From the IMG/VR virus record IMGVR_UViG_2703718815_000003: a stretch of DNA of 64,000 nt, one strand, 5' to 3'. The position numbers and the translations under genes are program-made. Below, piece by piece: positions 991-50,914 of the stretch. Position 1 is the stretch's first letter. Every line of letters starts with the position of its first letter. This DNA comes from a virus. Taxonomy: Duplodnaviria > Heunggongvirae > Uroviricota > Caudoviricetes. The notes beneath the pieces were generated by a model. It saw only the letters and a program-made list of their open reading frames with translations. It was not told the DNA's origin and ran no database searches.

Positions 991-3900
991 TCACAGACGG
1001 CCAATTCTTACTCGTAAGACGTTGTTATCGTCATAAACGTCAATCCGCTGACCATTTATAACCAATCGCCCATTGCCGCCGCTATTACCGTTGATCTCAA
1101 GCGTTCCATTTTTGCCGAACCGCCATCCAGATCTACCGCTAACAAAATTGGTAGATTGCAGATCGCCTACTTTTGCATTGGTGATTGTGCCATCCTTGAT
1201 ATACGCTCCATTCATATAGGCGATACTGTTTTCGATAACAAATGGCGTTGTGATCTTCCCGTTAACAGAGTTGACCAAACCAAACCTGTCCGCCTGAACC
1301 AAAAACTGAGATAGCCCAGTGGTGTCAATACCAAGCGCAATACCGGCAACATACTTCTGCCCTCCGCTCGTTGAAGTCTCCATTTTCAACGTCCACGCGG
1401 TTGACACTTTTTTGTTGGTATCAGCAATAGCTGTTGCCTGCTGTTGAATTGTCGCGGTATTTCCATTCACCTCTGCTTTCAGAGTATCGATTCGCCCACT
1501 CAGAGCATTATCTGCCTGCGTTCTCGCTTTCGTTTCAGTTGTGACCGCCGCGGAAATGTTGGCTGCCGTTTGAGACTCTAAGTTTGTGATTTGAGTCGCC
1601 AATGCAGCATCTTGCTCTGTACGCGTTTTCGTTTCGGTTGCTACAGCAGCTTTAATATCCTCTTTGTATTGAGAGGTCAGCTTGGTGATCTGAGACGACA
1701 ACGCCGAGTCAGCATCAGTTCGAGCCTGCGTTTCAACTGCAACGGCCGCACTAATATCTTTCGCTGTCTGTGCTTTTAAACTTGAAACCTCTTTTGTTAA
1801 AGCGGTATCACCATCTGCACGAGCCGTTGTTTCTCTGGCAAGAGACGCCTTGAGATCATTAGCTTTTGCTGTAAGAGACGTAATCTGGGTAGACAATGCA
1901 CTATCGGCATCAGTCCTTGCTTTTGTCTCTACAGCAACCGCTGCGGCAATATCAGTTCCGGTTTGTGCTCGCAGGCTGTTAATTTCTCGTGAGAGCGCCT
2001 GGTCAGCACTTGCTCTGGCCTCCTGCTCCTGAGTGATGGCAGCGGATATATCACCGTCAACCTTTGACTGAAGCTGGTTTATTTGTTTGGCTAACGCAGA
2101 GTCCCCGCTTGCTCGGGCCTCCTGCTCACTACGTATTGCAGCAGAAATATCATCATCAACCTTTGCCTGAAGTTGGGTGATCTGGCTTGCCAGAGCCGAA
2201 TCTTCCGTTGCTCGGGCTTCTTGCTCTTCCTTAATAGCTGCGACGATATCGTTGCTTACTTTCGACTCAAGCTGAGTGATCTGTGTCGTCAGAGCTTCAT
2301 CGGCAGATGTACGAGCCTCCTGCTCTGTACTAATCGCCGCGCTGATATCTCCTTCAAACTTAGATTGCAGCTGAGTGACACGCTTTGCCAACGCTTCATC
2401 GCCATCGGCACGAGCGGTGGACTCTTCCAGAATACTGGCCTTAATGTCTTCGCCAATTTCTACGCGAATTTCCTCAACCTTCGTGGCCATTGCAGACATA
2501 TCATCAGCAAAGGTTTTCTGTGTTGTTGCGATCTTCGCGTTATTGACCATCTGCTTGTGCTGGTCTTCATCTTGACGAAGAGCCAGGTCAATATTTGTTT
2601 TGGCTAACGCCTCAATGTTCGTAGTCAGTTCTGCACTGGCACGATCGACCTCTGCAACCGTCTTTTTCATTTCTTCAACGGCAGCGGAGCTTTCCTCTAC
2701 CGTTGACTGCAACACTTCCAGTTGTTTAGCGTTTGCAGCATCGCCTTCAACACGAGCCTCGCTTTCCTTAGCAATAAGAGCCGCCGCTTCATCTCTTGCA
2801 GCCTTTATTGCCTCGACTGTATTAGCGAGAGCTTTATCGTGTTCAGATACGGTGTTTTCGATTTCAACAATTGCAGCATCAGTAGCATCAATTTTTTCAA
2901 ACGCTTCATTGACCTTGTCGATCGTTGCCGAAACCTCACCTTTAAGCTCGGTTTGTGCGTTCTCCAAAGCATCGCTACGCTCGTTGAATTTTATTTCAAA
3001 ATCCGCGAGGTTATCGCTGAACTGCTTATCTAATTCAGCTATATCTTCCTTAACGTCGTTTACCGCCCCCTCCAAAGATTCGACGCTCTGGTTGATATGC
3101 TCATTTAACTCGTCAACTGCTTCTTGAGAGGCTTTGCTGTTGATGTCCTCAAGCAGAGCCTGACCAAGCTCGGAAGATGTAATTTTGCCAGTCAGGAACG
3201 ACAGTACATCGCGAGTTGTCGCCTCTGTACCCAAGTTTGAGTTCGGAGGACTTAACATACCTCGCTTGTTCGATGCTCGAACCCAGTAATACCACGTTTC
3301 GCTATCCCCAAGACCAGCATGTGTAAAGGTGGTGCTTGCAGACTCTGCGATCAGTTTCGCCGTATCCAGATTGTTGGTCTGGGATGCGTAAACATTAATG
3401 TGATCAAGGTCTACCGAATCTGGATTAACCCAATTCAGTATCACATTACGATAGTCTCCAACGGCCGTTAATGACGTTGGGGAATCCGGCGGTGTCATTG
3501 TGCCCAACACCTGATAAACGGCACTGATAATCTCTGTTTTTTTACCGTTGAATGAAACCGCATACAGCTGGAAGTCGTAGCGTCCATTCTCCGCGACATT
3601 AACGATTTCGTATTGCTCTTCGGTTACACGCGCCGATTGCCAGTTCGATACATTGTTTTCATCAGAACGTCGCCAACTGATCCAATACTCTGGAGATTTC
3701 CCTTCCCATGTTGCAGTCAGTTTTACTGACAGGTTGCCCGGGCTTGAGAGATAAGTCCCTTCAGTGATTTGCAGATTAGATGGCTTGGAGTAAGTTGGGT
3801 CCAATACCGTCGTATTCTGCGGGATCAGCGTTGCACCATTGTCGATTGCCTCATATTTAGACGGATTGTTCTCAACAGCGGTGATGTCAAAGCTACCCGG

Positions 3901-5718
3901 CGTTTCCCCCTGCGCGATGTTAACGATGCGAACGCGCATAGGTTCGAGGTCTGGTTCTGTAATAGTCCAGACGCCGTTCAAAACAGGCGTTTCAGCCGAA
4001 GACAGGGCTTTTGAAAACGTAACTTTTGTTATATTTTCGCCAGTTTCAAGAACATCGCGTTCAACGATTTTGCCTTCCTGATTCAGTATTCGAATAAAGC
4101 AGCCGCCTTTGGCTAACGACACAGGCGCATCGAGTGTGACGCTGTTTTTGGTAAACGCCACAATTCGACCTGAGTTACGTTTGCCTGCGCGATATTTGTT
4201 CTGAATCAGAACGGTTTCACCAGGCATCAGAAATGACGCGTCTAAGCCGGCAGTAAATGTAATTACATCCGACTCCATTCTGGCGGTATATAAAAGCCAC
4301 AAACCAACTCGGTGAGCCTGCCCTCGGCTTGTACAGCCAAATGCTACGACTTCTGTCTTACGTTCACCATAACGGCGCATTGCGTCCTGATCTTCAACGT
4401 ACTCGATGTTTTGCTTATAACCGTCCTCCTTGTTGTTGTAGGTTACGAGCGCAACGGATGGGCGATCTTTACGCGCAGAACCTTTATAGGTAAACAATCC
4501 ATCTTTGACGTTAGAGTTGGTAAACATCATTACCGGATCTGATGGGCTATCCTGCATGATGTTAACCATGCCACCAGCCCAAAACACCATACCGCGGAAT
4601 GCACCGGCAATATCCTGAATTAATCGGTATGCGTCCTGTCGACTGGTGATCTGCGTATTGATTGCAAAGCGTTTCTCTTTGCCACCAAAGCCATCATCGA
4701 CCTCTTCGTCACAATATCGACCAATCTGGTACAACTGGCCAAGGTCAATCATAGATTCCGACACATACTGACCAAGGCCATATCGAGCATTGGTCAGCAA
4801 ATCAAAGAGAATCCACGCGGGGTTTGAAGAAGACAACAGCTTAAAAGTGCCATCCCATACACCATCATAAGTGTTGCTGGCCTCGTTGTAGTTTGACGGC
4901 ACGCGAATTTTTAATCCACGTACCAAATACGAACGAGATGGCATGGTGCTACCAAACTGCTCAGAATTAACCTTCAGACCCACCAGCACAGAGTTTGGGT
5001 AGTTCATCGGTGTATCTACAATCTCACCTATTGAGTCCACCCATGTATCGTTATAGAGATACTGGCTGCTGTTATCATCGGTAATACGGACTACACGAAC
5101 CTTGTACGCGCGTCCAGGCTTAGGCAGCTTCAGCTCATAGCTACGGTAATAAACACCTGTCTTCTTTGCTGTTAGCTTAATGCCAACGCTTTTTTCACCT
5201 TCTGCGACCACATCTACAAATGTTGAGTCGCCATTTGCTATCTGGAACTTGTACTCAACAGTCGTACCGTTCGTGTCACCAGTTTTTTTATCTATGCTTC
5301 GCAAAGAAGGAAACTTCATGATGACACGAACCCGATCAGCTTCATCGTTATCGATTGAAACCGTTACATAATGTGTTTTTTTTAACTGGATATTGACGGA
5401 TTTAGGCGTTTCAACGAAATCAAAGCCAGACATTGGAGTCTGGTCTTGTGAACCGTCGCGAAAATCCCATGTGATTCCGCTGAAGTTGGAGGAACCGTCT
5501 TCATTTACAATCGGCAGATCGTCGATAAAAATAGATCTTGCGCCATTTACTAAGCCGCCAATTACCCCTTCCCCAAGAAGATCGAGGATAGCGGCCATTG
5601 CACGAGAATTTACGGTATCGTCGGCTTCAACCGGTGTACGGCTGGAGCTTTTGCTGCTTTTTTTACCACCCGCACCGGCAATAAACAGCGGTAGCTTTTT
5701 CTTCTTGAACTGTTCCAT
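991..5718 (-). CDS. central tail fibre / host specificity protein (lambda gpJ-like)
   Basis: About 1575 aa; position after I-like gene; long coiled-coil repeat region and distinct C-terminal domain. ORF-track start at 5724 is TTG; first ATG at 5716-5718 has AAGGA upstream. Confidence 0.8.
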   Translation of the reverse strand: MEQFKKKKLPLFIAGAGGKKSSKSSSRTPVEADDTVNSRAMAAILDLLGEGVIGGLVNGARSIFIDDLPIVNEDGSSNFSGITWDFRDGSQDQTPMSGFDFVETPKSVNIQLKKTHYVTVSIDNDEADRVRVIMKFPSLRSIDKKTGDTNGTTVEYKFQIANGDSTFVDVVAEGEKSVGIKLTAKKTGVYYRSYELKLPKPGRAYKVRVVRITDDNSSQYLYNDTWVDSIGEIVDTPMNYPNSVLVGLKVNSEQFGSTMPSRSYLVRGLKIRVPSNYNEASNTYDGVWDGTFKLLSSSNPAWILFDLLTNARYGLGQYVSESMIDLGQLYQIGRYCDEEVDDGFGGKEKRFAINTQITSRQDAYRLIQDIAGAFRGMVFWAGGMVNIMQDSPSDPVMMFTNSNVKDGLFTYKGSARKDRPSVALVTYNNKEDGYKQNIEYVEDQDAMRRYGERKTEVVAFGCTSRGQAHRVGLWLLYTARMESDVITFTAGLDASFLMPGETVLIQNKYRAGKRNSGRIVAFTKNSVTLDAPVSLAKGGCFIRILNQEGKIVERDVLETGENITKVTFSKALSSAETPVLNGVWTITEPDLEPMRVRIVNIAQGETPGSFDITAVENNPSKYEAIDNGATLIPQNTTVLDPTYSKPSNLQITEGTYLSSPGNLSVKLTATWEGKSPEYWISWRRSDENNVSNWQSARVTEEQYEIVNVAENGRYDFQLYAVSFNGKKTEIISAVYQVLGTMTPPDSPTSLTAVGDYRNVILNWVNPDSVDLDHINVYASQTNNLDTAKLIAESASTTFTHAGLGDSETWYYWVRASNKRGMLSPPNSNLGTEATTRDVLSFLTGKITSSELGQALLEDINSKASQEAVDELNEHINQSVESLEGAVNDVKEDIAELDKQFSDNLADFEIKFNERSDALENAQTELKGEVSATIDKVNEAFEKIDATDAAIVEIENTVSEHDKALANTVEAIKAARDEAAALIAKESEARVEGDAANAKQLEVLQSTVEESSAAVEEMKKTVAEVDRASAELTTNIEALAKTNIDLALRQDEDQHKQMVNNAKIATTQKTFADDMSAMATKVEEIRVEIGEDIKASILEESTARADGDEALAKRVTQLQSKFEGDISAAISTEQEARTSADEALTTQITQLESKVSNDIVAAIKEEQEARATEDSALASQITQLQAKVDDDISAAIRSEQEARASGDSALAKQINQLQSKVDGDISAAITQEQEARASADQALSREINSLRAQTGTDIAAAVAVETKARTDADSALSTQITSLTAKANDLKASLARETTARADGDTALTKEVSSLKAQTAKDISAAVAVETQARTDADSALSSQITKLTSQYKEDIKAAVATETKTRTEQDAALATQITNLESQTAANISAAVTTETKARTQADNALSGRIDTLKAEVNGNTATIQQQATAIADTNKKVSTAWTLKMETSTSGGQKYVAGIALGIDTTGLSQFLVQADRFGLVNSVNGKITTPFVIENSIAYMNGAYIKDGTITNAKVGDLQSTNFVSGRSGWRFGKNGTLEINGNSGGNGRLVINGQRIDVYDDNNVLRVRIGRL
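1480..2450 (-). repeat. intragenic tandem repeats of about 100 bp (about 34-aa coiled-coil units) inside J-like gene
   Basis: Recurring DNA units (e.g. gctcgggcctcctgctc about every 100 bp) and protein units DISAAI..EQEARA..D.AL..QI..L. Confidence 0.6.
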
Positions 5719-23751: not shown

Positions 23752-24642
23752 TTATGCCGGTAAAGCAATTTCTAACGGTTTATCCAAAGGTTGTTTGTCG
23801 AATGCCAGCAGTGGCAACGTGTCAGGCAGTCGACGGCCAAAGTCAGGGTTTCGGTACACACCATACAACGGAGACGTAAAGCTCAGGTTGTGAATGTCCT
23901 TGAGCAGCTTCACAATGCTGGCCTCGTCCACCAGACTGTCGGCAATGTCCTGAATCGTCGTGCCACGATTCCGCCCAGCTTTTGCCAGGGAACTGTTCTT
24001 GTGGTAGTCCGCCACCAGATCACGCAGTGCACGGCGACGACGAGACTCGCTCATTGCGAACAACTCTTTGACGATCGCCTCGTTATCACCCGGGTCGGAA
24101 CGGAAATGGCGCTGGAATACACGCAGTGCACTTTCATAGCTCTTCGGTCGCTCAGGGCGGATGAACTTAAACCCTGCTTTCATGGCGAAGGGATTGTATT
24201 TGCTCATCGAGGACTGGATCTCAATGATTGGCCGGTCATGCATCCTGCTAACCAGGTTAATCATTCGATAAGAGACGCCTACGCCACGATACTGAGTATC
24301 CACAACTGAGCGACTGATCACCGCAAAGTTGTTATTCACGTACCGACCCCAGTACTGGTTAGCCACGGTGGTATTAGTGGTTGGTTTCAACTTAGGAAAC
24401 ATGCGGTGGCGAGGTGCCAGCAGTAGTTTCGGGTAAGCCATAACCACGACGCCCACCAGACGGTCATCAAGTTCGCAGCGATAGTAAGTTGGCGCGAAAG
24501 GTTTGCCGTCTGTTTTGTAGTGAAGCGACTTAAGAGCGTACCAGTCCTCTACAGTTCCCTTTGTGACAGTCATTCGCTCCAGAAAGTCCAGATGACGCGG
24601 AAACTCTTCAGGGCGGTAGCGTTTAATGATGATGTCCGTCAT
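23752..24642 (-). CDS. GNAT-family acetyltransferase-like protein with N- and C-terminal extensions
   Basis: Motif VVDTQYRGVGVSYRMINLV resembles the GNAT acetyl-CoA motif (Q/R-x-x-G-x-G/A); start overlaps ATPase stop. Confidence 0.5.
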   Translation of the reverse strand: MTDIIIKRYRPEEFPRHLDFLERMTVTKGTVEDWYALKSLHYKTDGKPFAPTYYRCELDDRLVGVVVMAYPKLLLAPRHRMFPKLKPTTNTTVANQYWGRYVNNNFAVISRSVVDTQYRGVGVSYRMINLVSRMHDRPIIEIQSSMSKYNPFAMKAGFKFIRPERPKSYESALRVFQRHFRSDPGDNEAIVKELFAMSESRRRRALRDLVADYHKNSSLAKAGRNRGTTIQDIADSLVDEASIVKLLKDIHNLSFTSPLYGVYRNPDFGRRLPDTLPLLAFDKQPLDKPLEIALPA

Positions 24643-25304
24643 GAATGGACCTCATCATGACTACCATTGTGATATTCCACCTTCACGCGTTCTTTGTAGT
24701 GCTTGGTGATCTGCATATCCGGGCGCAGCGCGTTCTTCAGGTCTTCGTGAGTCGTCGCCACCATTACCGTCGCACCAACCTTTCGAGCGGCACGCTGGAG
24801 GTTAGATGCCACAACCTGAGCGGTTACACGGTCGAGAACAGCGCCGAACTCGTCAGCAGCCCACACTTTAGCGCCTGACTCAATCAGTTTGGCAATCTTG
24901 AGACGATATTTCTGACCGTCTGACATTTCAGAAGGCTTGCGAACAAACAGATATGCATCGTTCAGACCAGCCATAGATAACAACCCAAGCGCATCACTGG
25001 TAGTTTTGCCCAGTTGGTCAATGACGTTAACCTCATTATCGAAGGTAAAATCATCGATGGAGGCCACAGATAGCCCTTCATCCTTCATCTGGTGTTGCAG
25101 CTCGCGCAGCACAACGGATTTGCCGGAACCGGATTGGCCGGTAATGTACACCACATCGCCCTGCTTCACTTCCAGCTCCAGATTGTCGTAAAGCGTCCAC
25201 TCTTTTTCGTCCAGGCCAAGCCCGAACGACTCAGCGATTTCCAACGTGCGCGTGGTTTTATTTACGCGTGTCTGAAACGATACGTTGATGATGTATTTGC
25301 TCAT
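24639..25304 (-). CDS. ABC-type P-loop ATPase (stand-alone nucleotide-binding domain)
   Basis: Walker A GQSGSGKS, signature-like SDGQKYRL, Walker B VWAADEFGAVLD; 221 aa with no transmembrane partner nearby. Confidence 0.6.
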   Translation of the reverse strand: MSKYIINVSFQTRVNKTTRTLEIAESFGLGLDEKEWTLYDNLELEVKQGDVVYITGQSGSGKSVVLRELQHQMKDEGLSVASIDDFTFDNEVNVIDQLGKTTSDALGLLSMAGLNDAYLFVRKPSEMSDGQKYRLKIAKLIESGAKVWAADEFGAVLDRVTAQVVASNLQRAARKVGATVMVATTHEDLKNALRPDMQITKHYKERVKVEYHNGSHDEVHS

Positions 25305-25969
25305 GCAGCCATCTCCCCGGAAGAGATCTTCTCCGCATATGCCACAAATGCGTCTACCCCGCTTTCTCCCGTCATTTCTTCCATGTGGGCAAGCAAATCA
25401 CCAACAACAATGGCAGAGCCAGCAGGGAGCGTTTTAAAGCCCAATACGTCGACAACACGTACTTCTTCCGCTGCAACTTCACGACTGATCTCGGTGTGTT
25501 CATCCTTCTGTCGTTTAGTTTCTTCGCCAAGATCGATAACTAGCGAGTCGGTGTCCATTTCTTCTGTCATGCTGCCAACGAGAACATTCAACTCACGCTC
25601 TTCAAAGCCGAAAACCTCGATATCGTCCAGAACAAGCGACTCAAGCTCTTTCTGTAGCTTAATTGCATCGTAATCAATGCTGGCAAGTCGGTTATCTTCA
25701 AGGCGCTTCGCACGAATCTCGTCATCACTGAGATCATCGCGAACAATAACCGGTACGCGCTCAAGTCCAGCAAAAATTGCAGCCTCACGGCGGCCGTGGC
25801 CAGTAATAATTACGTCGTTCTTATCGACCGTAATTGGCTGGTCAAATCCGCGCTTTTTAATGGCTGCGGCTAGATCTCGGATCTGCTGTTCATCATGCTT
25901 TTTGGCATTCATCTCATAGGGAATAAGATCTGCCGGGTCGCGATATACGATTTCAAACTTTTTGGTCAT
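25301..25969 (-). CDS. ParB/Srx-fold (ParB N-terminal domain) protein 1
   Basis: GHGRREAA matches ParB box II (GERRxRA); start ATG 25967-25969 overlaps upstream stop (TAATG). Confidence 0.7.
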   Translation of the reverse strand: MTKKFEIVYRDPADLIPYEMNAKKHDEQQIRDLAAAIKKRGFDQPITVDKNDVIITGHGRREAAIFAGLERVPVIVRDDLSDDEIRAKRLEDNRLASIDYDAIKLQKELESLVLDDIEVFGFEERELNVLVGSMTEEMDTDSLVIDLGEETKRQKDEHTEISREVAAEEVRVVDVLGFKTLPAGSAIVVGDLLAHMEEMTGESGVDAFVAYAEKISSGEMAA

Positions 25970-26649
25970 TACATACGCTCCTTGTAGTAGTCGACCAGCC
26001 ACACCAGAGCCTCACCAGCGTTCTCCATTTCATTACCGGTGTTAATAGCCTGCTCTTTGATGATGTTTTTTATGGTTTCTGCAACGCGATCTGACGCATC
26101 GAAAGTTACTTTGAAGCGCATGGTCTGATGTTCCGCCCCCACACGTTCGGTTTTCTCTCGTTTGTCGGTATCGACAGGCTCATCACTACCACGAGACAAC
26201 GCCTCCAGTGCTTCAAGGTCGATTGCCGCCTCTTTTGCTATAACCATCGAGATTTCGTCGTCATACGGGGCGATTTCAGACAGTTGATAGTCAAGTTCTG
26301 ACTGAATTTCTTCAATGAAGCGTTGCAATGCGATTTGGTCGTCTTCACCGTATCGCTCGTTGTCCACCAGTGACATCTGTTTAGCTACGACATCGCTAAT
26401 TTTGCCCACAGAAAGCACTGGAACCGTTGAAATTCCTTGCTCAATAGCGGCACGCCAGCGATGTTCGCCGCCGAGGATTTCAAAAAATCCATCTTCAAGT
26501 TCACGAGCCAAAATTGGCTTAAAAAAGCCCAATTTTTCGATAGAACCTTTCAGTTTTTCAAAATTCTGCGCACCAACCGAATTGGTGTTCCAGGTATTCG
26601 GGCGAAGGTTGGCAACATCAACCTGCAAAATCGTGATTTTTACATCCAT
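25969..26649 (-). CDS. ParB/Srx-fold (ParB N-terminal domain) protein 2
   Basis: LGGEHRWRAA matches ParB box II; first ATG at 26647-26649 (track start is GTG). Confidence 0.7.
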   Translation of the reverse strand: MDVKITILQVDVANLRPNTWNTNSVGAQNFEKLKGSIEKLGFFKPILARELEDGFFEILGGEHRWRAAIEQGISTVPVLSVGKISDVVAKQMSLVDNERYGEDDQIALQRFIEEIQSELDYQLSEIAPYDDEISMVIAKEAAIDLEALEALSRGSDEPVDTDKREKTERVGAEHQTMRFKVTFDASDRVAETIKNIIKEQAINTGNEMENAGEALVWLVDYYKERM

Positions 26650-26666
26650 TTTATTGCTACAATCCA

Positions 26667-26694
26667 CTAAGTAATCACTTACTTACTATAATAG
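26667..26694. promoter_or_regulatory. palindromic TAAGTA...TACTTA motif in divergent promoter region
   Basis: ctaagtaatcacttacttactataatag between the divergent ParB operon and helicase gene. Confidence 0.4.
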
Positions 26695-28293: not shown

Positions 28294-28572
28294 ATGAGCG
28301 AAAAGAAAACAACTTATTGCCAAGTGGCATTGTCTGATAAGGCCAATGAAAAACTTGGAAAATTTCAAATAAAACTCAAAGAGAAAAAAATCAAGATGTC
28401 TAAAGCTGAAGTTATCAATGCCATTCTGGAGACGATGACTATGGCTGAATTTGACAAAGTCACATCTGCTGTTGGGGTTTCCGCTAAGACGCGTGAGAAA
28501 ATCATGCGCATCTATGAAAACTCCAATATGACAAAAAAAGATTTAGAGGAAATACTGAGCAGGTTGCCGTAA
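28294..28572 (+). CDS. hypothetical small protein
   Basis: 92-aa Lys-rich ORF directly after helicase. Confidence 0.4.
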   Translation: MSEKKTTYCQVALSDKANEKLGKFQIKLKEKKIKMSKAEVINAILETMTMAEFDKVTSAVGVSAKTREKIMRIYENSNMTKKDLEEILSRLP

Positions 28573-28637
28573 CATTTCATATTTACCCCCTATCTACTAA
28601 TTCTATGATGTGCTCACTTGTTAGAAAGGAGCACATC

Positions 28638-29204
28638 ATGAGTTGGTTAAAAGAATTATCATTTGTTGACACCACTGGCGCTAAGAAAAATCATTCTTTC
28701 TGGAAAGTCAGCGATCCTTCTGATTTTCTTGTTGGCGCTAATGCTGCTTTTGAATTGCTTAACTTTTATCAACGTTATCCTGAAATGAAACACAGTCCAC
28801 TCCTGTACAGAATAACAAACGATATGAATAGGTCTGGTTTATTATCAAGTGAGTCAGCGAAAGGCTTTTTTAGCAAAATAACGCCACACATATCATTCGA
28901 TGCTGCAAACGAAATTGATTATCTATCCACGAAACCTCAAGAACAATTGTCTGTACCACCTGAGAAAAAAGAAAGACGAATTGCCAGCATTGAAAATATA
29001 TCGAAAGAGCTTCGCACAACAACGTTGAGGCTGCTGAACTTTCTTACGCTACTAAATTGGATAGATGATCAAACATTGATTCCATCAACCGATGCGTTGG
29101 ATAACAGAGTCCTTAGGCTGAACAAAAAATCGCAATTTGGTTTTGTGTTCACCAAAAAAGGTGAAGATTTAATCAAAAGAAAATATAGATTATTGAATGA
29201 TTAA
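28638..29204 (+). CDS. hypothetical protein (AT-rich cargo)
   Basis: Start set to ATG 28638 with AAAGGAG upstream; low-GC region. Confidence 0.5.
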   Translation: MSWLKELSFVDTTGAKKNHSFWKVSDPSDFLVGANAAFELLNFYQRYPEMKHSPLLYRITNDMNRSGLLSSESAKGFFSKITPHISFDAANEIDYLSTKPQEQLSVPPEKKERRIASIENISKELRTTTLRLLNFLTLLNWIDDQTLIPSTDALDNRVLRLNKKSQFGFVFTKKGEDLIKRKYRLLND

Positions 29205-29210
29205 TAGTCT

Positions 29211-29256
29211 ACATGCAGGTGTATGAGAGCACCTGCATGTGACATTCATCACATTT
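29211..29256 (+). terminator. intrinsic terminator
   Basis: 10-bp stem acatgcaggt/acctgcatgt followed by TTTTTT. Confidence 0.5.
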
Positions 29257-29349
29257 TTTGAAGCACACACCTCCGGCTGAAAAAATTTCTTGATTGGCTG
29301 AACGATATTTGTAGGCTTTTCAATTGATAACTAAGGTCGGATACTGCAG

Positions 29350-29838
29350 ATGAGTATTTCTATAAACAAAATAATTAACTCTTTACGACATAAAATATCA
29401 CATGGAAAAGATGTTCTTTTTAAAGAAAAATATTATCTATTCAACTTAGAGCCGTACAAATGTACAAAATTTTATATCACTCGGAACCGTAAATATTCAG
29501 TTTCAATCACAAAAGACATGAAGAAAATCTCTTCAGAAGAGTACTTCATATCACATATTTATATCTACCCATTTAAATTAGAACCATTAAATATAATTCT
29601 TCCTACAATAAAAGGGGTTGAACTTGAAGGTTATACTTTAAGCTCTAACTTTAATGATATGGGTGTACAAAAACCAGGGACAAGGTCATACTACGCCTAC
29701 AAAGTAAAATGCAATAACTACAACGCACTTAACATGCTAATCAGCAAACTTGAAACGGAGATAGTCGAAGGAAATCTAAATGATGATCATGAAAAATTAG
29801 AACAAATAGAAAAACTTAGAAAGTGTGATGTTAAATAA
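29350..29838 (+). CDS. hypothetical protein (AT-rich cargo)
   Basis: 162-aa ORF in low-GC island. Confidence 0.45.
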   Translation: MSISINKIINSLRHKISHGKDVLFKEKYYLFNLEPYKCTKFYITRNRKYSVSITKDMKKISSEEYFISHIYIYPFKLEPLNIILPTIKGVELEGYTLSSNFNDMGVQKPGTRSYYAYKVKCNNYNALNMLISKLETEIVEGNLNDDHEKLEQIEKLRKCDVK

Positions 29839-30453
29839 TTGGATTATCATGATATGAAAATGAAACTTTCGTTACTCCTTGCTTGTATATACCTCCCGGC
29901 GTTTTCCGCCAACGCATTATCAGATTTCGTCTATGACATGCAAAAAACGTACAGCATGTTTACCTCCGAAGACGTAGTAGAATACAAATCACGAGGTCTG
30001 AATCAGCCAGTTTGGTTCAGATTCTCAGACAACGCAGAAGAAACAATACTTAATGGAGGAAAAGAAAGATTACGGTTGCAAATTAACGGGACCGCTGTAC
30101 CAGAAAACGTTAATGTAAGCTCTGACGAAGCCATGAAGCCATCTGGAATTGTTTTAGAAGTTCAAGACGGCACACTTTACTGTGATGAAATGGCTACAAC
30201 AGGTTGCCAAGTAAACATTAGGGTTGGCAATGAAGAGCCTATCGTTACTTACGCCAAGGCTGAAGGGAATACAAGTGGAAAGGTATTGTTTATCGATGAA
30301 AATATCTCAAAACGTATCGTTCGTGACATACAGAAAACAGCTAACTCTAAATCCGTCGATAAAAAAATCTATGTTGAGGTTCCCTTCTTTGTCGTTGGTA
30401 ACAAAGAATTTAAATTTGGGTTGCTGAAAACACCTCTAAGAGTATCAGAATGA
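29839..30453 (+). CDS. predicted secreted protein
   Basis: N-terminal signal-peptide-like MKMKLSLLLACIYLPAFSANA; exact start uncertain (ATGs at 29839, 29854, 29860). Confidence 0.5.
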   Translation: MDYHDMKMKLSLLLACIYLPAFSANALSDFVYDMQKTYSMFTSEDVVEYKSRGLNQPVWFRFSDNAEETILNGGKERLRLQINGTAVPENVNVSSDEAMKPSGIVLEVQDGTLYCDEMATTGCQVNIRVGNEEPIVTYAKAEGNTSGKVLFIDENISKRIVRDIQKTANSKSVDKKIYVEVPFFVVGNKEFKFGLLKTPLRVSE

Positions 30454-30974
30454 GAACATTGGACATCACCTACGGCATACCGGCTGAAGTCTGGCCGCGA
30501 GACTACGAACATGCTGAGAACATACTTATGTTCTGGCGGAAGAACAACATTCCTGTAAGAGTCACGCTTGAAGACGGTCAGGTGTTTTGCATGTACGTTC
30601 AGGGGACAATGCCTTCACGCAATAAGCTAGATTTATGCCCGATTCCATATGATAAAGAAAATCGTATAAGACTCCCACTTGAGCGCATTAGCACAATTGA
30701 ATCAGGTGTAATCGATGGCATTGCTCGCGAGTTCAAAGGTAGGCTAACAATACATCCAGACTATGTTGACAATCAGCCATCACGCCGTGACTTTTTTGCG
30801 ATATGTCGCAAGGCTTATCAAAACGACCAATCTATAAGGGTCTACATGACAGACGGTCGTGAAATAGAAGGGGTGTCAAGAGGCGTTGATGCTTGCCAGG
30901 TCACTCTTAAGTTAGAAGACGGCAGAAAAATACTTGTTTTCTTCGATTGGGTTGAACGAATCCTTCCATTTTAA
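30450..30974 (+). CDS. hypothetical protein
   Basis: 174-aa ORF overlapping previous stop. Confidence 0.5.
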   Translation: MRTLDITYGIPAEVWPRDYEHAENILMFWRKNNIPVRVTLEDGQVFCMYVQGTMPSRNKLDLCPIPYDKENRIRLPLERISTIESGVIDGIAREFKGRLTIHPDYVDNQPSRRDFFAICRKAYQNDQSIRVYMTDGREIEGVSRGVDACQVTLKLEDGRKILVFFDWVERILPF

Positions 30975-31165
30975 ATCTATAAGGGTAATAACCGGCTAAG
31001 TCCGGTTATTATTTTACATGCCATTCATTTAAAACTCTTTCAATGCCACCCCGTATAAATATATAAGGTTAAAGGCCCGAATTGATTATTTATTTAGGGA
31101 ACACCTTCGACGATCTCGCTTTTATTTCTAGGACTTTCATCCCTGCAGAAAATTTAAAAAAACAC

Positions 31166-31194
31166 TTGCAATCTTTTTTCACGTATTGATAATT
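31166..31194 (+). promoter_or_regulatory. sigma70-like promoter
   Basis: TTGCAA - 17 nt - ATAATT upstream of the 31269 gene. Confidence 0.4.
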
Positions 31195-31268
31195 GAACTC
31201 GTCGAAAGCGAGCTGGCTAACGACAGTAAAAAATAAATTCATTTTAATTTTTCGTAAGGATGTCCATC

Positions 31269-31919
31269 ATGGCTAACATTATCATTTCTAAAAAGTCCAT
31301 CATTGAAGCTGCTGCCATTGTATCCGACGAGCTGCGCGAAAAAGCAGATCTGGCAACTCAAACATATAACGAACATTATAAAAATGGTACGCACACAAAA
31401 GCAGACAAAGCAAATATGCAAGCTGCAACCACCAAACTTGCTTACTTCATCAACAACGTCGTAAACGCAGTAGAAGACGAAAAATTATGCTCTGTTTTCT
31501 ACTATGCGATCAAAGCAAGTAAACAAGCGCCAGAAGTATTTTTCCGTGATGCAATGACTAATAGTTATTCACTGGAAAAACTGGTTTATCTGGTTAAATC
31601 CATTAAAGCTGGTAAATGTGTTTATTCCGTCGCTGATATGTCAGGATCTCGTGTGTTCGCTTTAATCGATATGATTAACGACGAGATCGACACGTTCACC
31701 AATGGCGCTGTTTTCGATTTAATGAATGAAGCTAAAAAAGCGTGCGAAATTAAATTGGACGCTGGCTATACTCAAGCCAACCAGCTTATCAATCTTTGCG
31801 AACGTCTTGGACTTGTTGAGAAAGTCAAAGGAATGGGAAGCGCAAAAGCTGGTACGCAGCAATATCGCTTTATTAAAAATGATTTCTATAACTATCTGGC
31901 TGATGCTTTCAAAGCGTAA
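31269..31919 (+). CDS. hypothetical protein
   Basis: AAGGA 8 nt upstream of ATG 31269; 216 aa. Confidence 0.55.
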   Translation: MANIIISKKSIIEAAAIVSDELREKADLATQTYNEHYKNGTHTKADKANMQAATTKLAYFINNVVNAVEDEKLCSVFYYAIKASKQAPEVFFRDAMTNSYSLEKLVYLVKSIKAGKCVYSVADMSGSRVFALIDMINDEIDTFTNGAVFDLMNEAKKACEIKLDAGYTQANQLINLCERLGLVEKVKGMGSAKAGTQQYRFIKNDFYNYLADAFKA

Positions 31920-31932
31920 TTAATGGAATCTG

Positions 31933-31953
31933 GCGCCCACTATGGGCGCTTTT
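31933..31953 (+). terminator. intrinsic terminator (GCGCCCA cta TGGGCGC + TTTT)
   Basis: Perfect 7-bp GC stem followed by T-run. Confidence 0.6.
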
Positions 31954-31966
31954 AAGGAGCTTAATC

Positions 31967-32197
31967 ATGTTTATTCTTATCGCTGGCGTTAACGTGCGCA
32001 ATGAATATTTTGTTAATCGCATCGCTGGGATCGCTGGTTACGCTGGGCGCGCAGTCGAGCTTATAGATGAAACGACGCGCAAAATTGACTTATTGAGCGA
32101 CCAGGAGCGAAAAAAAGCAGACGTGAATGACGCTGATATATTTTTAATGTTAAAAGCGTTTGTAGAAATGGGATTTGAAATCAGTTTACATAAATAA
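31967..32197 (+). CDS. hypothetical small protein
   Basis: AAGGAG 7 nt upstream; 76 aa; bracketed by two identical terminator hairpins. Confidence 0.5.
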   Translation: MFILIAGVNVRNEYFVNRIAGIAGYAGRAVELIDETTRKIDLLSDQERKKADVNDADIFLMLKAFVEMGFEISLHK

Positions 32198-32203
32198 AAT
32201 CGA

Positions 32204-32226
32204 GCGCCCACTATGGGCGCTTTTTT
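32204..32226 (+). terminator. intrinsic terminator, same hairpin as 31933
   Basis: GCGCCCA cta TGGGCGC + TTTTTT. Confidence 0.6.
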
Positions 32227-36599: not shown

Positions 36600-37330
36600 A
36601 ATGTTCTATACGGCGACTATTTCTGTTGGTGAATTGGGTGTGTTGTTCTCTCTGTCGGTGTATGTGGTTTCGTTCGTTTTGCGGTGGTTCTTCTATGGGG
36701 TGTTCTCGTCGTTTTGGTGATTGTTCTTCTCCGTGTATGGAGTAATGGCAGGTGGGCGATTCCTTTCGTTGTTGTGTTTGAGTTGTTTGTCTGGAGTGTG
36801 TGAAAGGCTTTTGTAGTTATTCGTGTATTGGGTAATGGCATTTCCCGTGATTGTTATGTTTCGTGTCTTTTGGGATTGAGAGAATCCTTGCGGTTACAGG
36901 CTTCGTTGGGGTTTCAGTGATTCTGGTGTTTCTTCGCTGTTTGGGGAATGGCGTGTCGTGGGTATCGCGCGTATGAATGTTTTCGGATTGCCTGTGAAAG
37001 TTAGGTTGGTTGTCCGGTAGCCTGGGGAGAAGAGGTGGGTTGTTTTTGGAAATGGCATGTGTGTTATTTAGTTGTTTTGTTATGCCTGAAAATAAGTTGT
37101 TTATATGGTTGTGTAACGCAACGGGAGCGATTTTGAGCGTGTGTTTTTGTTGGTAGTGTGTTGGGTCGTCTGTGGTGAAAATTGGACGCTGTGGCGCTGT
37201 CTGCTGCGTAGAGTTGCGGGTATAAGAAGTGATGTGTGAAAACGTCAATTTTTTAGACCAAATCGGGTGAAAGCGTTGACGTTTCGTTGATCTGTTATTT
37301 AGTTGTTTTCTTATTTGTATAAACAACCAT
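36600..37330. repeat. GT-skewed (plus strand) degenerate tandem repeat tract, unit about 90-100 bp
   Basis: Plus strand almost entirely G+T; units end in g(a/g)gtaATGGCA / ggaaATGGCA at about 36743, 36833, 36943, 37043. Confidence 0.5.
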
Positions 37331-48226: not shown

Positions 48227-49912
48227 TCATTTAACGCATTTGAAAACGTATACGCTGACTGTGATCCCTGTGTCTTCAAACTCGTTGGTAAACGACTTCC
48301 CTCTGGCATAAACGTAATTATCCATCGTCATCCAGTCCAGTATTGGCGCAGTGCCCGGCAATACTGCTACAAGACGCCCGCCGACTTTCAGATGCCCCAG
48401 CGCAGCCAGCGTGTGCTCTCTATGACGACCAAGCGAGTACGGCGGGTTCATAACGATTTTGTCGAACTGATAACCTGCGTTGTCCTCAGACCACTTTATG
48501 AAGTCGCAGCAAATCGTGTTCGTATACCCTTTTCCAAGCAGGATATCAGCGAAGAGAGGTGCGATTTCTATGCAGGTAACATCTTCCAGATCGGCGTTAA
48601 TATAGGCCAGAAGATCCCCACGTCCGGCTTGAGGCTCCAGCAGCTTCTCACCAGGCTTCAATTCAGTGGCTCTGGCAACGTACTCAGCAATCAAGCGTGG
48701 GGTAGGGTAGAACTGGTGTGATTTTGTATCCGGTATTAAACCGGTAGCCACAATCGTATTTAGCGTATGGCCGATGTCATACGGGAACTGCCAGTGCTTT
48801 TTCTCCTGCACGCCGCCAATGAAGCTCAGTGTGCGCTCAAGCTCTTCCACCTGCGACTTCTGGAGAGCTGAATCAGAGAAGTACCATACGCCTTTGTCTT
48901 TGCTCAATCGCCCGTCACGAAGCGCAGTGCGAACCGGCACGGAGATCGTCTTCTGGATTAACCCGAACTGCTTTGGTGCCCGTGTTTTTGGCGCAGTTCG
49001 GCATGGCGCGGGGATTGCAGCAGGCATACTGTAAGCCAGCACCTCATTCAACTTCCAGGCCACGTCAGGATGTATTTCAAAGTGAACGTTGCCGTTCTTG
49101 AACATCTTCACGCGCATCAGATTTCCATCGACGTTCATCCAGTCACCGGTCTGGCAGTCGTTTGCTCGATACGCAGCTGATAGCACCTCAGCAGTGCGGT
49201 TGATGGTAATAAATTCTTTGTGCGCGAAGAAATGAAGCAAGACACGCAGATCGTCGATGTAGTCCTCTTTGCGATAGTTCACGCTAACGCTGTCCCGCCA
49301 GAAATCAGAAATGCAGTCAGCGATTATCAGACGCTCGCTGAAACCGTTTGTCTTATTTGTCTTGTGCGCAGGACTCAGCGCCTTAAACAAGCCATACACG
49401 CGCTCAGAGAGATATTTGTGCCTGTCATTCAGCAAATTAAGCATCGTGGGTATGACCGTTTCTGCTTTGAACTCCGGTACACCAACGAACTCTTTAACCT
49501 TCATCTGGTAGCCGGTTCTGTCAGTTTTGATGACTTCCTGTTTGCCCTCTATAAACTGCTCGCGCCACTCATCTCGACGGGAAGCTGGCATGATCAGCAA
49601 AACGTTAGTCATGTCCGTGACCTTCCTCCAGTACTCGGCCCAAATATTCTGTTTCACCCATTCCAGATCGACTTTATCCAACCAACCTCGATTTAAACGC
49701 GAGCGATCTTCATCTGGTCGATGGTTTAGTCTCAGCAGGCGATTAATCATGTTGTGGCGTTCGTCGCCATAAACGAAGTCGTGAACCTGATACATGAAGG
49801 CGATCTCTTTCTCGCACTCGGCCACAATTTCGTGGATGACGTTCATTTCCTGCCGATAGTCGATAGCAGTGTTTGAGTTGGCATCGTCGATGATGGAAAG
49901 GGCTGTATTCAT
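48227..49912 (-). CDS. DNA methyltransferase (N6A/N4C type) with large N-terminal domain
   Basis: C-terminal AdoMet motif LEPQAGRGDL followed by catalytic MNPPYS. Confidence 0.65.
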   Translation of the reverse strand: MNTALSIIDDANSNTAIDYRQEMNVIHEIVAECEKEIAFMYQVHDFVYGDERHNMINRLLRLNHRPDEDRSRLNRGWLDKVDLEWVKQNIWAEYWRKVTDMTNVLLIMPASRRDEWREQFIEGKQEVIKTDRTGYQMKVKEFVGVPEFKAETVIPTMLNLLNDRHKYLSERVYGLFKALSPAHKTNKTNGFSERLIIADCISDFWRDSVSVNYRKEDYIDDLRVLLHFFAHKEFITINRTAEVLSAAYRANDCQTGDWMNVDGNLMRVKMFKNGNVHFEIHPDVAWKLNEVLAYSMPAAIPAPCRTAPKTRAPKQFGLIQKTISVPVRTALRDGRLSKDKGVWYFSDSALQKSQVEELERTLSFIGGVQEKKHWQFPYDIGHTLNTIVATGLIPDTKSHQFYPTPRLIAEYVARATELKPGEKLLEPQAGRGDLLAYINADLEDVTCIEIAPLFADILLGKGYTNTICCDFIKWSEDNAGYQFDKIVMNPPYSLGRHREHTLAALGHLKVGGRLVAVLPGTAPILDWMTMDNYVYARGKSFTNEFEDTGITVSVYVFKCVK

Positions 49913-50015: not shown

Positions 50016-50687
50016 CTAATCATACTTGGAGGTATTTATCACCAGAATTTTGTTTGTATAAATCTTCTTAATATCCCATGTGACATTACCGGAATACCAT
50101 TGACCGTTATATACTTGGTTTCCAGTTGCACCTGTCATTGTTACATAGACAGGTCTGTCGTAATCGGTTCGTCTATAGTTATATACTCCAACCATAGCAG
50201 GCATTACCGCACATGGATACCCCATATCTATTGTAAATTGAGGGTCAGAAATAGTGATAAGTTTCGCATCAAGGGGCATCATCTCACCGTGATACACCAT
50301 TGCGCCTGCGCTGTTATACATGGCAATGCCATAGCCAGAATGTGGTAACACCATATCAGAAAAAGCATAAACTGTTATTGTTCCGGGGCTACCATTTACC
50401 TGATGCAATCTGAGAGCATTGTATCCGTTACTATGCTCATGAATAAACATCATGTTCGCCTTATTACTGCTTTTTATGAAAAAAAAACATGATTTGTTTG
50501 ATGGGATTGATGTTTGAAAAACAGAACCTTTAGATGTAGACATTGTCCCTTTATTAATCAGATTTTGCGGAGTAAATTCTGGACTCATCCACAAACTTCC
50601 ATCTGATTGAGTAATTGACATCCCGAACATAATTATCCCCAGTATGTGTATATGTAAGAACCAAGCCCCGTATATAAATTTGACCAA
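50016..50687 (-). CDS. hypothetical protein (low-GC cargo); possibly one disrupted gene with 50633-50914
   Basis: Two ORFs overlap by about 55 nt in different frames. Confidence 0.35.
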   Translation of the reverse strand: MVKFIYGAWFLHIHILGIIMFGMSITQSDGSLWMSPEFTPQNLINKGTMSTSKGSVFQTSIPSNKSCFFFIKSSNKANMMFIHEHSNGYNALRLHQVNGSPGTITVYAFSDMVLPHSGYGIAMYNSAGAMVYHGEMMPLDAKLITISDPQFTIDMGYPCAVMPAMVGVYNYRRTDYDRPVYVTMTGATGNQVYNGQWYSGNVTWDIKKIYTNKILVINTSKYD

Positions 50688-50914
50688 CTAACCGTATTTC
50701 CATTAATAGTAACATTTGGAACAGGTAAATTGATGTAGTTGTCGTTGTTAAGAGGCATTAATGACCACACGGCATGTAGTGATTTACCCGGTGGCGGATT
50801 AGAGTACGTCTTAGAGCCTGATGACGCCGTAAATCGATCAAGAAAAAAAATAGGTGTAAGGAAGCCAGTAACGTTAATTCCTTTATTGTTGTAAATCCCT
50901 GTACCGTATGACAT
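50633..50914 (-). CDS. hypothetical protein / N-terminal fragment
   Basis: 93-aa ORF overlapping 50016-50687. Confidence 0.3.
   Translation of the reverse strand: MSYGTGIYNNKGINVTGFLTPIFFLDRFTASSGSKTYSNPPPGKSLHAVWSLMPLNNDNYINLPVPNVTINGNTVSWSNLYTGLGSYIYTYWG

Follow-up and report, generated by a model that had tools for sequence, protein, structure and literature searches.

FljA of Salmonella and the FljA encoded by the z66 plasmid bind the leader of fliC mRNA and block its translation (PMC2652032). The E. coli counterpart, FlkB, imposes a post-transcriptional stop on synthesis of the flagellin FliC (PMC3378880). Papers on the SSU5 supergroup of phage-plasmids describe conserved phage genes plus variable accessory genes. 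Here we describe positions 28294-30974 of a 64,000-nucleotide (nt) stretch of Caudoviricetes DNA (IMG/VR record IMGVR_UViG_2703718815_000003; 'the window'), where a gene of the FljA family follows directly on a variable slot rich in predicted exported proteins. We favour, without strong conviction, a reading in which this low-GC tract is an accessory hotspot for lysogenic conversion, acting on the cell surface, that is coupled to a post-transcriptional repressor. The literature that we searched yielded neither this hotspot in phage-plasmids nor a link between FljA and phage-plasmids.

Between 26.7 and 32.3 kb the window shares 94-98% identity with three Escherichia phage-plasmids, CMS-2020a, Cyrano and PhiR41_1, and ~79% with Salmonella phage SSU5. 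For the stretch 28294-30974, identity is 99.7% with E. coli plasmid NZ_MG904996 and ~96% with the 109-kb plasmid that E. coli O104:H4 2009EL-2050 carries. On the strength of these identities the window is assigned to an SSU5/pHCM2/pMT1-type phage-plasmid of E. coli, ~110 kb in size. The locus was compared across 61 loci including that of the window (annotated phages and plasmids, four genomes and 50 viral contigs); plasmid counts are of PLSDB records and genome counts are of 5,426 complete E. coli genomes. All 61 loci share one gene order: helicase, a gene for a protein of 92 amino acids (aa), slot A, the fljA-like gene, slot B and a 216-aa gene (Table 1). Slot A is the interval between the 92-aa and fljA-like genes, and slot B follows the fljA-like gene with an insertion point at 30972.

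The original prediction, made from the sequence of the window, placed four unknown proteins in an AT-rich island. The stretch 28294-30974 in fact holds five plus-strand open reading frames (ORFs), of 92, 188/199, 162, 199/204 and 174 aa, and the last of them is a FljA homologue. Its match to PF03614 scores 270.1 bits against a cutoff of 24, with residues 5-171 aligned to positions 1-170 of the 170-position profile, and the protein also matches phrog_1444, annotated 'transcriptional repressor' (E 6e-98); by these profiles it is a full-length member of the FljA family. In PLSDB 831 plasmids carry the gene, 822 of them with coverage of 80% or more, and almost all are non-mobilizable replicons of 100-115 kb. 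By genus the records are from Klebsiella (341), Escherichia (229), Enterobacter (92), Yersinia (62; pMT1) and Salmonella (60; pHCM2), and in the complete E. coli genomes the gene occurs in 243 of 5,426, plasmid-borne in every case. A distant Klebsiella element whose FljA-like copy is 35.6% identical keeps the synteny. Because the gene is carried by so many plasmids and the gene order persists down to ~35% identity, we assign it to the backbone of the family and not to its cargo. The same assignment is made for the 92-aa gene, which is present in all related loci at 52-100% identity.

Slot A, by contrast with its flanks, is highly variable. Ten size classes occur among the 61 loci, corresponding to nine gene arrangements besides the empty loci, which number two and have 116 bp between the flanking genes. 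The commonest filling (26 loci) is a gene for a 140-aa lipoprotein with a GC content of ~0.5; a distantly related 145-aa lipoprotein encoded on the opposite strand, the Klebsiella type, fills 11 loci. The arrangement of the window is present in seven loci, a secreted 197-aa protein stands alone in six and a 259-aa lipoprotein occupies four. Three more combinations account for the remaining five loci; a 266-aa lipoprotein, a 117-aa secreted protein and an HNH endonuclease are among their products. In one of these relatives, L021 (IMGVR_UViG_3300015177_000008), the 377-aa HNH endonuclease (3833-4966) takes the position of the 162-aa gene and has weak similarity to type IV methyl-directed restriction enzymes; it was the only alternative slot protein for which PADLOC returned a match, and the alternative lipoproteins gave only weak, sub-threshold matches to DUF2846 and BiPBP_C. 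Slot DNA is present in 132 of the complete E. coli genomes, with the full cassette in 36, and no copy is chromosomal.

Homology between loci breaks at 28576 (4 nt past the stop codon of the 92-aa gene), at 29318, at 29853 (just one base ahead of the ATG that starts the secreted-protein gene), at 30462 (codon 5 of the fljA-like gene), at 30972 (its stop codon) and at 31950-31962. As these breakpoints coincide with gene boundaries, the island is a row of single-gene cassettes that are swapped by recombination at those boundaries. The island was originally predicted to be cargo throughout; that description holds for 28577-30461, which is present, absent or replaced between conserved flanks, and fails for the 92-aa and fljA-like genes, which are backbone. 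By this comparison the true cargo consists of three single-gene cassettes encoding proteins of 188, 162 and 199 aa.

The first cargo gene begins at the ATG at 28638, preceded by AAGGAG, its mechanically called ORF (199 aa) starting at 28605. Among 5.8e9 proteins a homology search recovered 10 clusters for the 188-aa protein, and the family is found on 178 plasmids, including Klebsiella plasmids at ~42% identity. Its ratio of non-synonymous to synonymous divergence (pN/pS) is 0.47-0.49, with pS saturated. The strong hairpin 3' of the gene is not a canonical terminator, since the T-run lies ~10 nt further downstream. The second protein, a predicted cytoplasmic ORFan, is still rarer (three clusters in the same 5.8e9 proteins; 23 plasmids). 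Distant homologues of it, R41_191 and Kp70_204 (E 7e-8), lie at the same position, and there too the next gene encodes a secreted protein, of an unrelated family. For the third protein, annotated 199-aa homologues make the ATG at 29854 (199 aa) the likeliest start, and not the TTG at 29839 (204 aa). From the ATG the predicted signal peptide, MKMKLSLLLACIYLPAFSANA, with cleavage before LSD, combines a basic N-terminus and a hydrophobic core with an A-x-A cleavage motif. This pattern persists in homologues down to 48% identity despite sequence drift, which bears out the signal-peptide-like N-terminus noticed in the original prediction with a corrected start. Two cysteines in the mature part are invariant among homologues. 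A lipoprotein reading of the 199-aa protein was considered and rejected: the LLAC motif at residues 8-11 is too near the N-terminus and is not kept in homologues, whereas the A-x-A signal-peptidase I site is kept. The secreted-protein family comprises 14 clusters among 5.8e9 sequences and is found on 65 plasmids. An exhaustive profile search with the family alignment returned nine proteins in 1.84e9 representatives; the distant matches include a 208-aa relative with a signal peptide and the Cys pair, and a repeat protein that is Big_2-like by sequence.

The remote-homology and structure-prediction route suggested for the island proved uninformative for the cargo, and no named family was identified for these proteins. 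The model of the 162-aa protein has a predicted local distance difference test score (pLDDT) of 49.7 and is unusable; that of the 199-aa protein (pLDDT 66.7) is a β-sandwich with generic β-sandwich matches only. The products of 92, 188/199, 162 and 199/204 aa match only PHROG families that have no assigned function and none in Pfam, NCBIfam or PADLOC; PADLOC-DB 2.0 gave only a noise-level SspC match (E 0.007, 12 bits) for the 199-aa ORF. Sequence and profile searches of the PDB with the FljA-like, 92-, 188-, 162- and 219-aa proteins and two family alignments gave no match, and no enzymatic or sensor domain was found in the three cassette proteins by Pfam and PDB profile searches. Nor was a core replication function, which would have argued against an accessory island, found by homology for any of the island genes.

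Homologues of the cargo genes at 42-58% identity stand in the same positions in Citrobacter, Klebsiella and metagenomic elements, and pN for the cargo genes is 0.27-0.38 against a saturated pS of ~0.8; for both reasons the genes are real. The layout of the trio (188-aa family, 162/191/204-aa family, secreted protein, fljA) is shared by elements of E. coli, Citrobacter and Klebsiella, at 26-58% identity and with two unrelated secreted partners. A recent one-off insertion was rejected as an account of the window's cassette set, which has diverged in place to 49-58% identity in other genera. Given this divergence, and a 162-aa gene that is just as AT-rich in Citrobacter, the set is instead an old alternative filling of the slot.

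At least one predicted exported protein, either a lipoprotein or a Sec substrate, is encoded in every non-empty slot A (59 of the 61 loci). Among the slot families five of eight are exported, compared with six of 68 other ORFs in the window scored by the same heuristic (P ~2e-4), and by eye none of the six background ORFs is convincing. The enrichment fits a role at the cell surface or in exclusion. The same-strand gene before fljA ends no more than 4 nt from the fljA start or overlaps it. The two reading frames overlap by ATGA in the window and in the 49%-identical homologue of L067, the junction in Citrobacter is TGATG, and the gap after the 140-aa lipoprotein gene is 4 nt; junctions of these kinds span the window, L066, L067, L008 and L009. 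The island was predicted to have a function in superinfection exclusion, defence or anti-defence. The excess of exported proteins is in keeping with a surface or exclusion role, but no known defence, anti-defence or exclusion family was matched.

The visible drop in GC from 28.3 to 31 kb on which the island was first recognized is confirmed by computation. GC is 0.375 for 28294-30974 and 0.464 for the window; windows of equal size elsewhere have a mean of 0.469, a standard deviation of 0.0175 and a minimum of 0.432, so that GC is far from uniform and this is the lowest-GC stretch in the 64 kb, about five standard deviations under the remainder. The cassette genes have GC 0.29-0.40, and the trough is the 162-aa gene (GC 0.288; 0.264 at third codon positions; minimum 0.267 at 29350-29649), whose Citrobacter homologue is similarly AT-rich (GC 0.284). 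Low GC extends beyond 30974 to ~32.2 kb (0.379 for 28294-32222) through an intergenic region (0.337), the 216-aa gene and a 76-aa gene. Low GC identifies cargo only imperfectly at this locus, because the 140-aa lipoprotein filling has a GC of ~0.5 and the backbone genes downstream have 0.37-0.40. A second low-GC kilobase lies at 50-51 kb (GC 0.382); it holds ORFs of 223 and 93 aa without an assigned function at 50016-50914 on the minus strand, next to a 561-aa ORF (48227-49912), and it may be another accessory spot.

Both backbone genes of the island carry imported alleles. The 92-aa gene evolves unusually fast, at 52-58% identity where the helicase is 90-93% identical, and between otherwise near-identical elements its synonymous divergence (dS) is 0.57-1.1 compared with 0.10-0.13 for the helicase. 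Among loci whose helicase is 98-100% identical to that of the window, FljA identity ranges from 75 to 100%, and fljA alleles appear in differing combinations with the slot types. In a comparison of the window with L057 the helicase has a dS of 0.13, the 92-aa gene one of 0.57 and the fljA-like gene one of 0.68, a contrast that reveals imported old alleles and not faster protein evolution. The ratio of non-synonymous to synonymous substitution rates (dN/dS) of the fljA-like gene is 0.06-0.30, indicating purifying selection throughout.

Weak Pfam signals for Hfq (E 5.6e-4) and LSM (E 0.018) are present in the FljA-like protein. Its two halves (residues 19-60 and 110-165) align in register with α1-β2 of Hfq at an hhalign probability of 4-10%, which hints that proteins of the FljA family may have a tandem Sm-like RNA-binding fold. 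A sequence search of the PDB retrieved no solved member of the family.

Table 1. Features of the locus, with positions in the window.
Feature	Position	Strand	Remarks
DEAD/DEAH-box helicase, 519 aa	26732-28291	+	Pfam ResIII, DEAD and Helicase_C; PHROG 16; left flank, backbone
92-aa backbone gene	28294-28572	+	phrog_1466 (E 1e-45); starts 2 nt after the helicase stop
Cassette 1: 188-aa gene and strong hairpin	28577-29318	+	homology breakpoints 28576 and 29318; phrog_13473
Hairpin 3' of the 188-aa gene	29207-29243	+	RNA fold -24.7 kcal/mol, z -5.35; 0 of 200 shuffles as stable
Cassette 2: 162-aa ORFan, predicted cytoplasmic (gene 29350-29838)	29319-29852	+	breakpoints 29318 and 29853
Cassette 3: predicted Sec-exported 199-aa protein	29854-30453	+	small family; signal peptide 29854-29916; ATGA overlap with fljA start
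fljA-like gene, 174 aa	30450-30974	+	Pfam Flag1_repress PF03614 (E 9.1e-81)
Terminator hairpin followed by T-run	30982-31015	+	fold -15.3 kcal/mol, z -4.5; invariant columns in seven diverse loci
Conserved non-coding region, leader of next gene	31016-31268	+	conserved block-wise, including in the distant Klebsiella element L063
216-aa backbone gene	31269-31919	+	phrog_1513 (E 2e-139), profile from residue 4; GC 0.39
35-nt direct repeat, copy 1, with hairpin GCGCCCACTATGGGCGC	31919-31953	+	after the 216-aa gene; breakpoints 31950-31962
76-aa gene	31967-32197	+	phrog_1585; presence varies in relatives
35-nt direct repeat, copy 2, same terminator hairpin GCGCCCACTATGGGCGC	32190-32224	+	after the 76-aa gene; low-GC tract ends

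The helicase that was expected upstream of the island is there, and it is 90-100% identical over more than 60 related loci. Upstream of it and divergent from it, a four-gene block on the minus strand (23752-26667) is kept across the family; two of the genes are ParB-like, one encodes an ABC-type ATPase, and the fourth, of 296 aa, has in Cyrano the annotation of an ATPase fused to an acetyltransferase. Downstream of the fljA-like gene, 30975-31268 is made up of conserved blocks: the terminator hairpin, AATATATAAGG, ATTTATTTAGGGAACACCTTCGA, TTTATTTCTAGGACTTT, a promoter-like pair of hexamers (TTGCAA at 31166 and GATAAT at 31193) and a ribosome-binding site. The region is conserved across the SSU5 supergroup even where FljA is only ~35% identical, and the blocks may be operator or regulatory sites. 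Promoter-like sites are no commoner than in shuffled sequence (15 found, 16.5 expected), and no Rfam element was found within 26-34 kb; a tRNA scan was empty as well. Slot B in relatives holds an optional secreted Cys-rich protein of ~100 aa. The start of the 216-aa gene was set by alignment (the mechanical ORF, of 219 aa, begins at 31260), and the gene is present in all loci at 78-100% identity. In relatives an extra 67-aa gene sits precisely at the joint marked by the 35-nt repeat, for which reason the repeat has the look of a linker at which cassettes are exchanged by recombination.

Elsewhere in the window, ~650 nt at 36620-37250 are strongly G/T-rich on the plus strand and offer only implausible low-complexity ORFs; AT skew is -0.295 at 36-37 kb and GC skew +0.19 at 37-38 kb. 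The stretch probably has a non-coding role, for instance as an origin or as a non-coding RNA. The sole tandem array in the window is a 99-nt repeat at 2009-2226 (2.2 copies, 76% match).

In the reading that we favour, the exported protein and the FljA-like protein would be made together, at least in the plasmid-carried state, and would alter the carrier's cell surface. The site of action of the exported protein would be the periplasm or outer membrane, where it might block a receptor or entry step of competing phages. By analogy with Salmonella FljA and E. coli FlkB, the FljA-like protein would bind an mRNA leader and block its translation, with the host flagellin gene fliC as the obvious candidate target, and the 188- and 162-aa proteins would be cytoplasmic partners. 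Several observations weigh against this proposal. The FljA-like protein is only 35-36% identical to genuine plasmid FljA, and no flagellin gene occupies the slot in any of the 61 loci, the upstream gene in the window encoding the 199-aa β-sandwich protein; at the genuine FljA locus included for comparison (L062) flagellin is upstream. Klebsiella and Y. pestis are classically without working flagella or non-motile, and the gene is intact in both, in Klebsiella (341 records) and on Y. pestis pMT1 (62), which counts against flagellin as the only or ancestral target. Since promoter-like sites occur at chance frequency, expression in the plasmid state is an assumption; all the genes are on the helicase strand, and read-through from a replication or early operon is possible. 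Finally, the literature that we searched does not cover the locus.

In a serious rival reading the FljA-like protein would be a housekeeping post-transcriptional regulator of the phage-plasmid itself, with no flagellar role and with the exported proteins as unrelated passengers at a permissive site; its targets might be the conserved leader of the 216-aa gene or lysis/lysogeny transcripts. We consider this account credible though on the unlikely side. It agrees with a backbone gene that is found on 831 plasmids and holds its place at 35% identity, that stays intact in pMT1 and in Klebsiella-type elements (dN/dS 0.17), that has no adjoining flagellin gene such as the genuine fljBA locus has, and that directly precedes a non-coding region conserved block-wise throughout the family. 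A self-target was not found, however: the window has only chance-level matches to the fliC leader (best E 0.4) and 26-34 kb has no Rfam element. The tight coupling of the fljA-like gene is moreover kept across unrelated families of exported proteins, which suggests that the partners are linked in function and did not become neighbours by chance. Conservation in Klebsiella is also compatible with a flagellin target, given that the elements move between flagellated and non-flagellated enterobacteria. If instead the 188-aa, 162-aa-family and secreted-protein genes formed a new multi-gene anti-phage defence or superinfection-exclusion system, the island would be a defence islet. Indirect support for such a system comes from the three-part layout, which recurs in three genera and has two unrelated secreted partners, from the HNH endonuclease in the middle position of L021 and from the assorted defence systems reported for SSU5-group elements (10.1101/2025.09.12.675607), but we regard it as improbable. 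PADLOC detects nothing above noise among the slot proteins here or in relatives, and the searches revealed neither an enzymatic nor a sensor domain. The modules can also be found apart (the secreted protein by itself in six loci, the 188-aa gene with other partners) and on unequal numbers of plasmids (178, 23 and 65 for the 188-aa, 162-aa and secreted families), and an obligate three-gene system fits this poorly. That the ORFs are functionless chance frames in AT-rich, H-NS-silenced junk DNA is highly improbable. Their GC of 0.29-0.40, the lack of family matches, the tiny families and the poor model of the 162-aa protein would suit that description; full-length homologues in place at 42-58% identity in other genera, non-synonymous divergence far under the saturated synonymous divergence, conserved signal-peptide features and two conserved cysteines, and breakpoints that respect gene boundaries do not.

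A bolder extension of the proposal would make the FljA family primarily a backbone module of SSU5-type elements: an RNA-binding translational repressor always made with a rapidly exchanged exported protein, the two forming an undescribed 'surface-switch' unit that silences a resident surface structure while installing a new envelope protein. The target would be flagellin in motile hosts and something else in Klebsiella and Yersinia, Salmonella fljBA would be a domesticated version with flagellin in the position of the exported protein, and the 188/162/secreted trio would be a new exclusion system. Taken together, this whole seems unlikely to us. Clinical enterobacteria commonly carry SSU5-type phage-plasmids, with S. 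Typhi pHCM2 and Y. pestis pMT1 among them, and the elements are usually treated as cryptic. Were the FljA homologue to shut off flagellin or another surface protein, carriage would alter motility, H-antigen serotype, innate recognition and sensitivity to phages that depend on flagella; the exchangeable exported proteins would be candidate agents of exclusion between phages, and the locus would suggest a testable origin of the phase-variation repressor of Salmonella. Should none of these points prove true, the region is a typical accessory-gene hotspot full of orphan genes. The part that deserves experiment is the conserved, unstudied FljA homologue of clinically widespread plasmids and its coupling to exchangeable exported proteins.

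Among described systems, the variable regions of the SSU5 supergroup (pHCM2, pMT1, pECOH89, Cyrano) have the same backbone and synteny. The accessory genes reported there so far are mostly for resistance, virulence and defence and were inserted elsewhere by transposons and insertion sequence (IS) elements; the hotspot and the fljA-like gene are absent from the papers that we found. By kind the locus is best classed as a moron-type accessory hotspot of a temperate element. Like morons such as bor and lom of lambda, its cassettes are single-gene units of deviant base composition that lie between conserved genes and vary in presence among relatives, with breakpoints at gene boundaries, often a hairpin to follow and frequently an envelope protein as product. 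Morons carry their own promoter and terminator; here hairpins follow the 188-aa and fljA-like genes, and promoter-like sites number 15 against 16.5 expected. The setting differs too, a plasmid-prophage backbone beside a replication helicase, and several cassettes have diverged in place to ~50% identity and so are not all recent additions. The superinfection-exclusion envelope proteins of phages (the lipoproteins Llp of T5 and Cor of phi80/N15, and Imm and Sp of T4) are likewise small, phage-encoded and exported, a plausible means of blocking receptors or the entry of DNA, and the slot of relatives carries lipoproteins. No resemblance to these proteins in sequence or fold was found, and the window protein is a predicted soluble Sec substrate without a lipobox.

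The closest parallel is with Salmonella fljBA and E. coli flkAB, in which, as here, the fljA-like gene is the distal member of a small operon whose proximal product leaves the cytoplasm (predicted in the present case). In contrast to those operons, the upstream product is a Sec-exported protein or lipoprotein and not a flagellin. There is no Hin-type invertible promoter at this locus: a recombinase gene was not found in the annotated neighbourhoods, nor were flanking inverted repeats bracketing a promoter, the repeats detected being terminator hairpins. Further, and unlike fljBA, the gene belongs to a phage-plasmid backbone, encodes a protein with only 35-36% identity to a genuine FljA and is kept in hosts without flagella. 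As it passes the PF03614 profile while the flagellin partner and the invertible promoter are absent, the gene is filed here as a FljA-family homologue in a new context and not as a phase-variation repressor.

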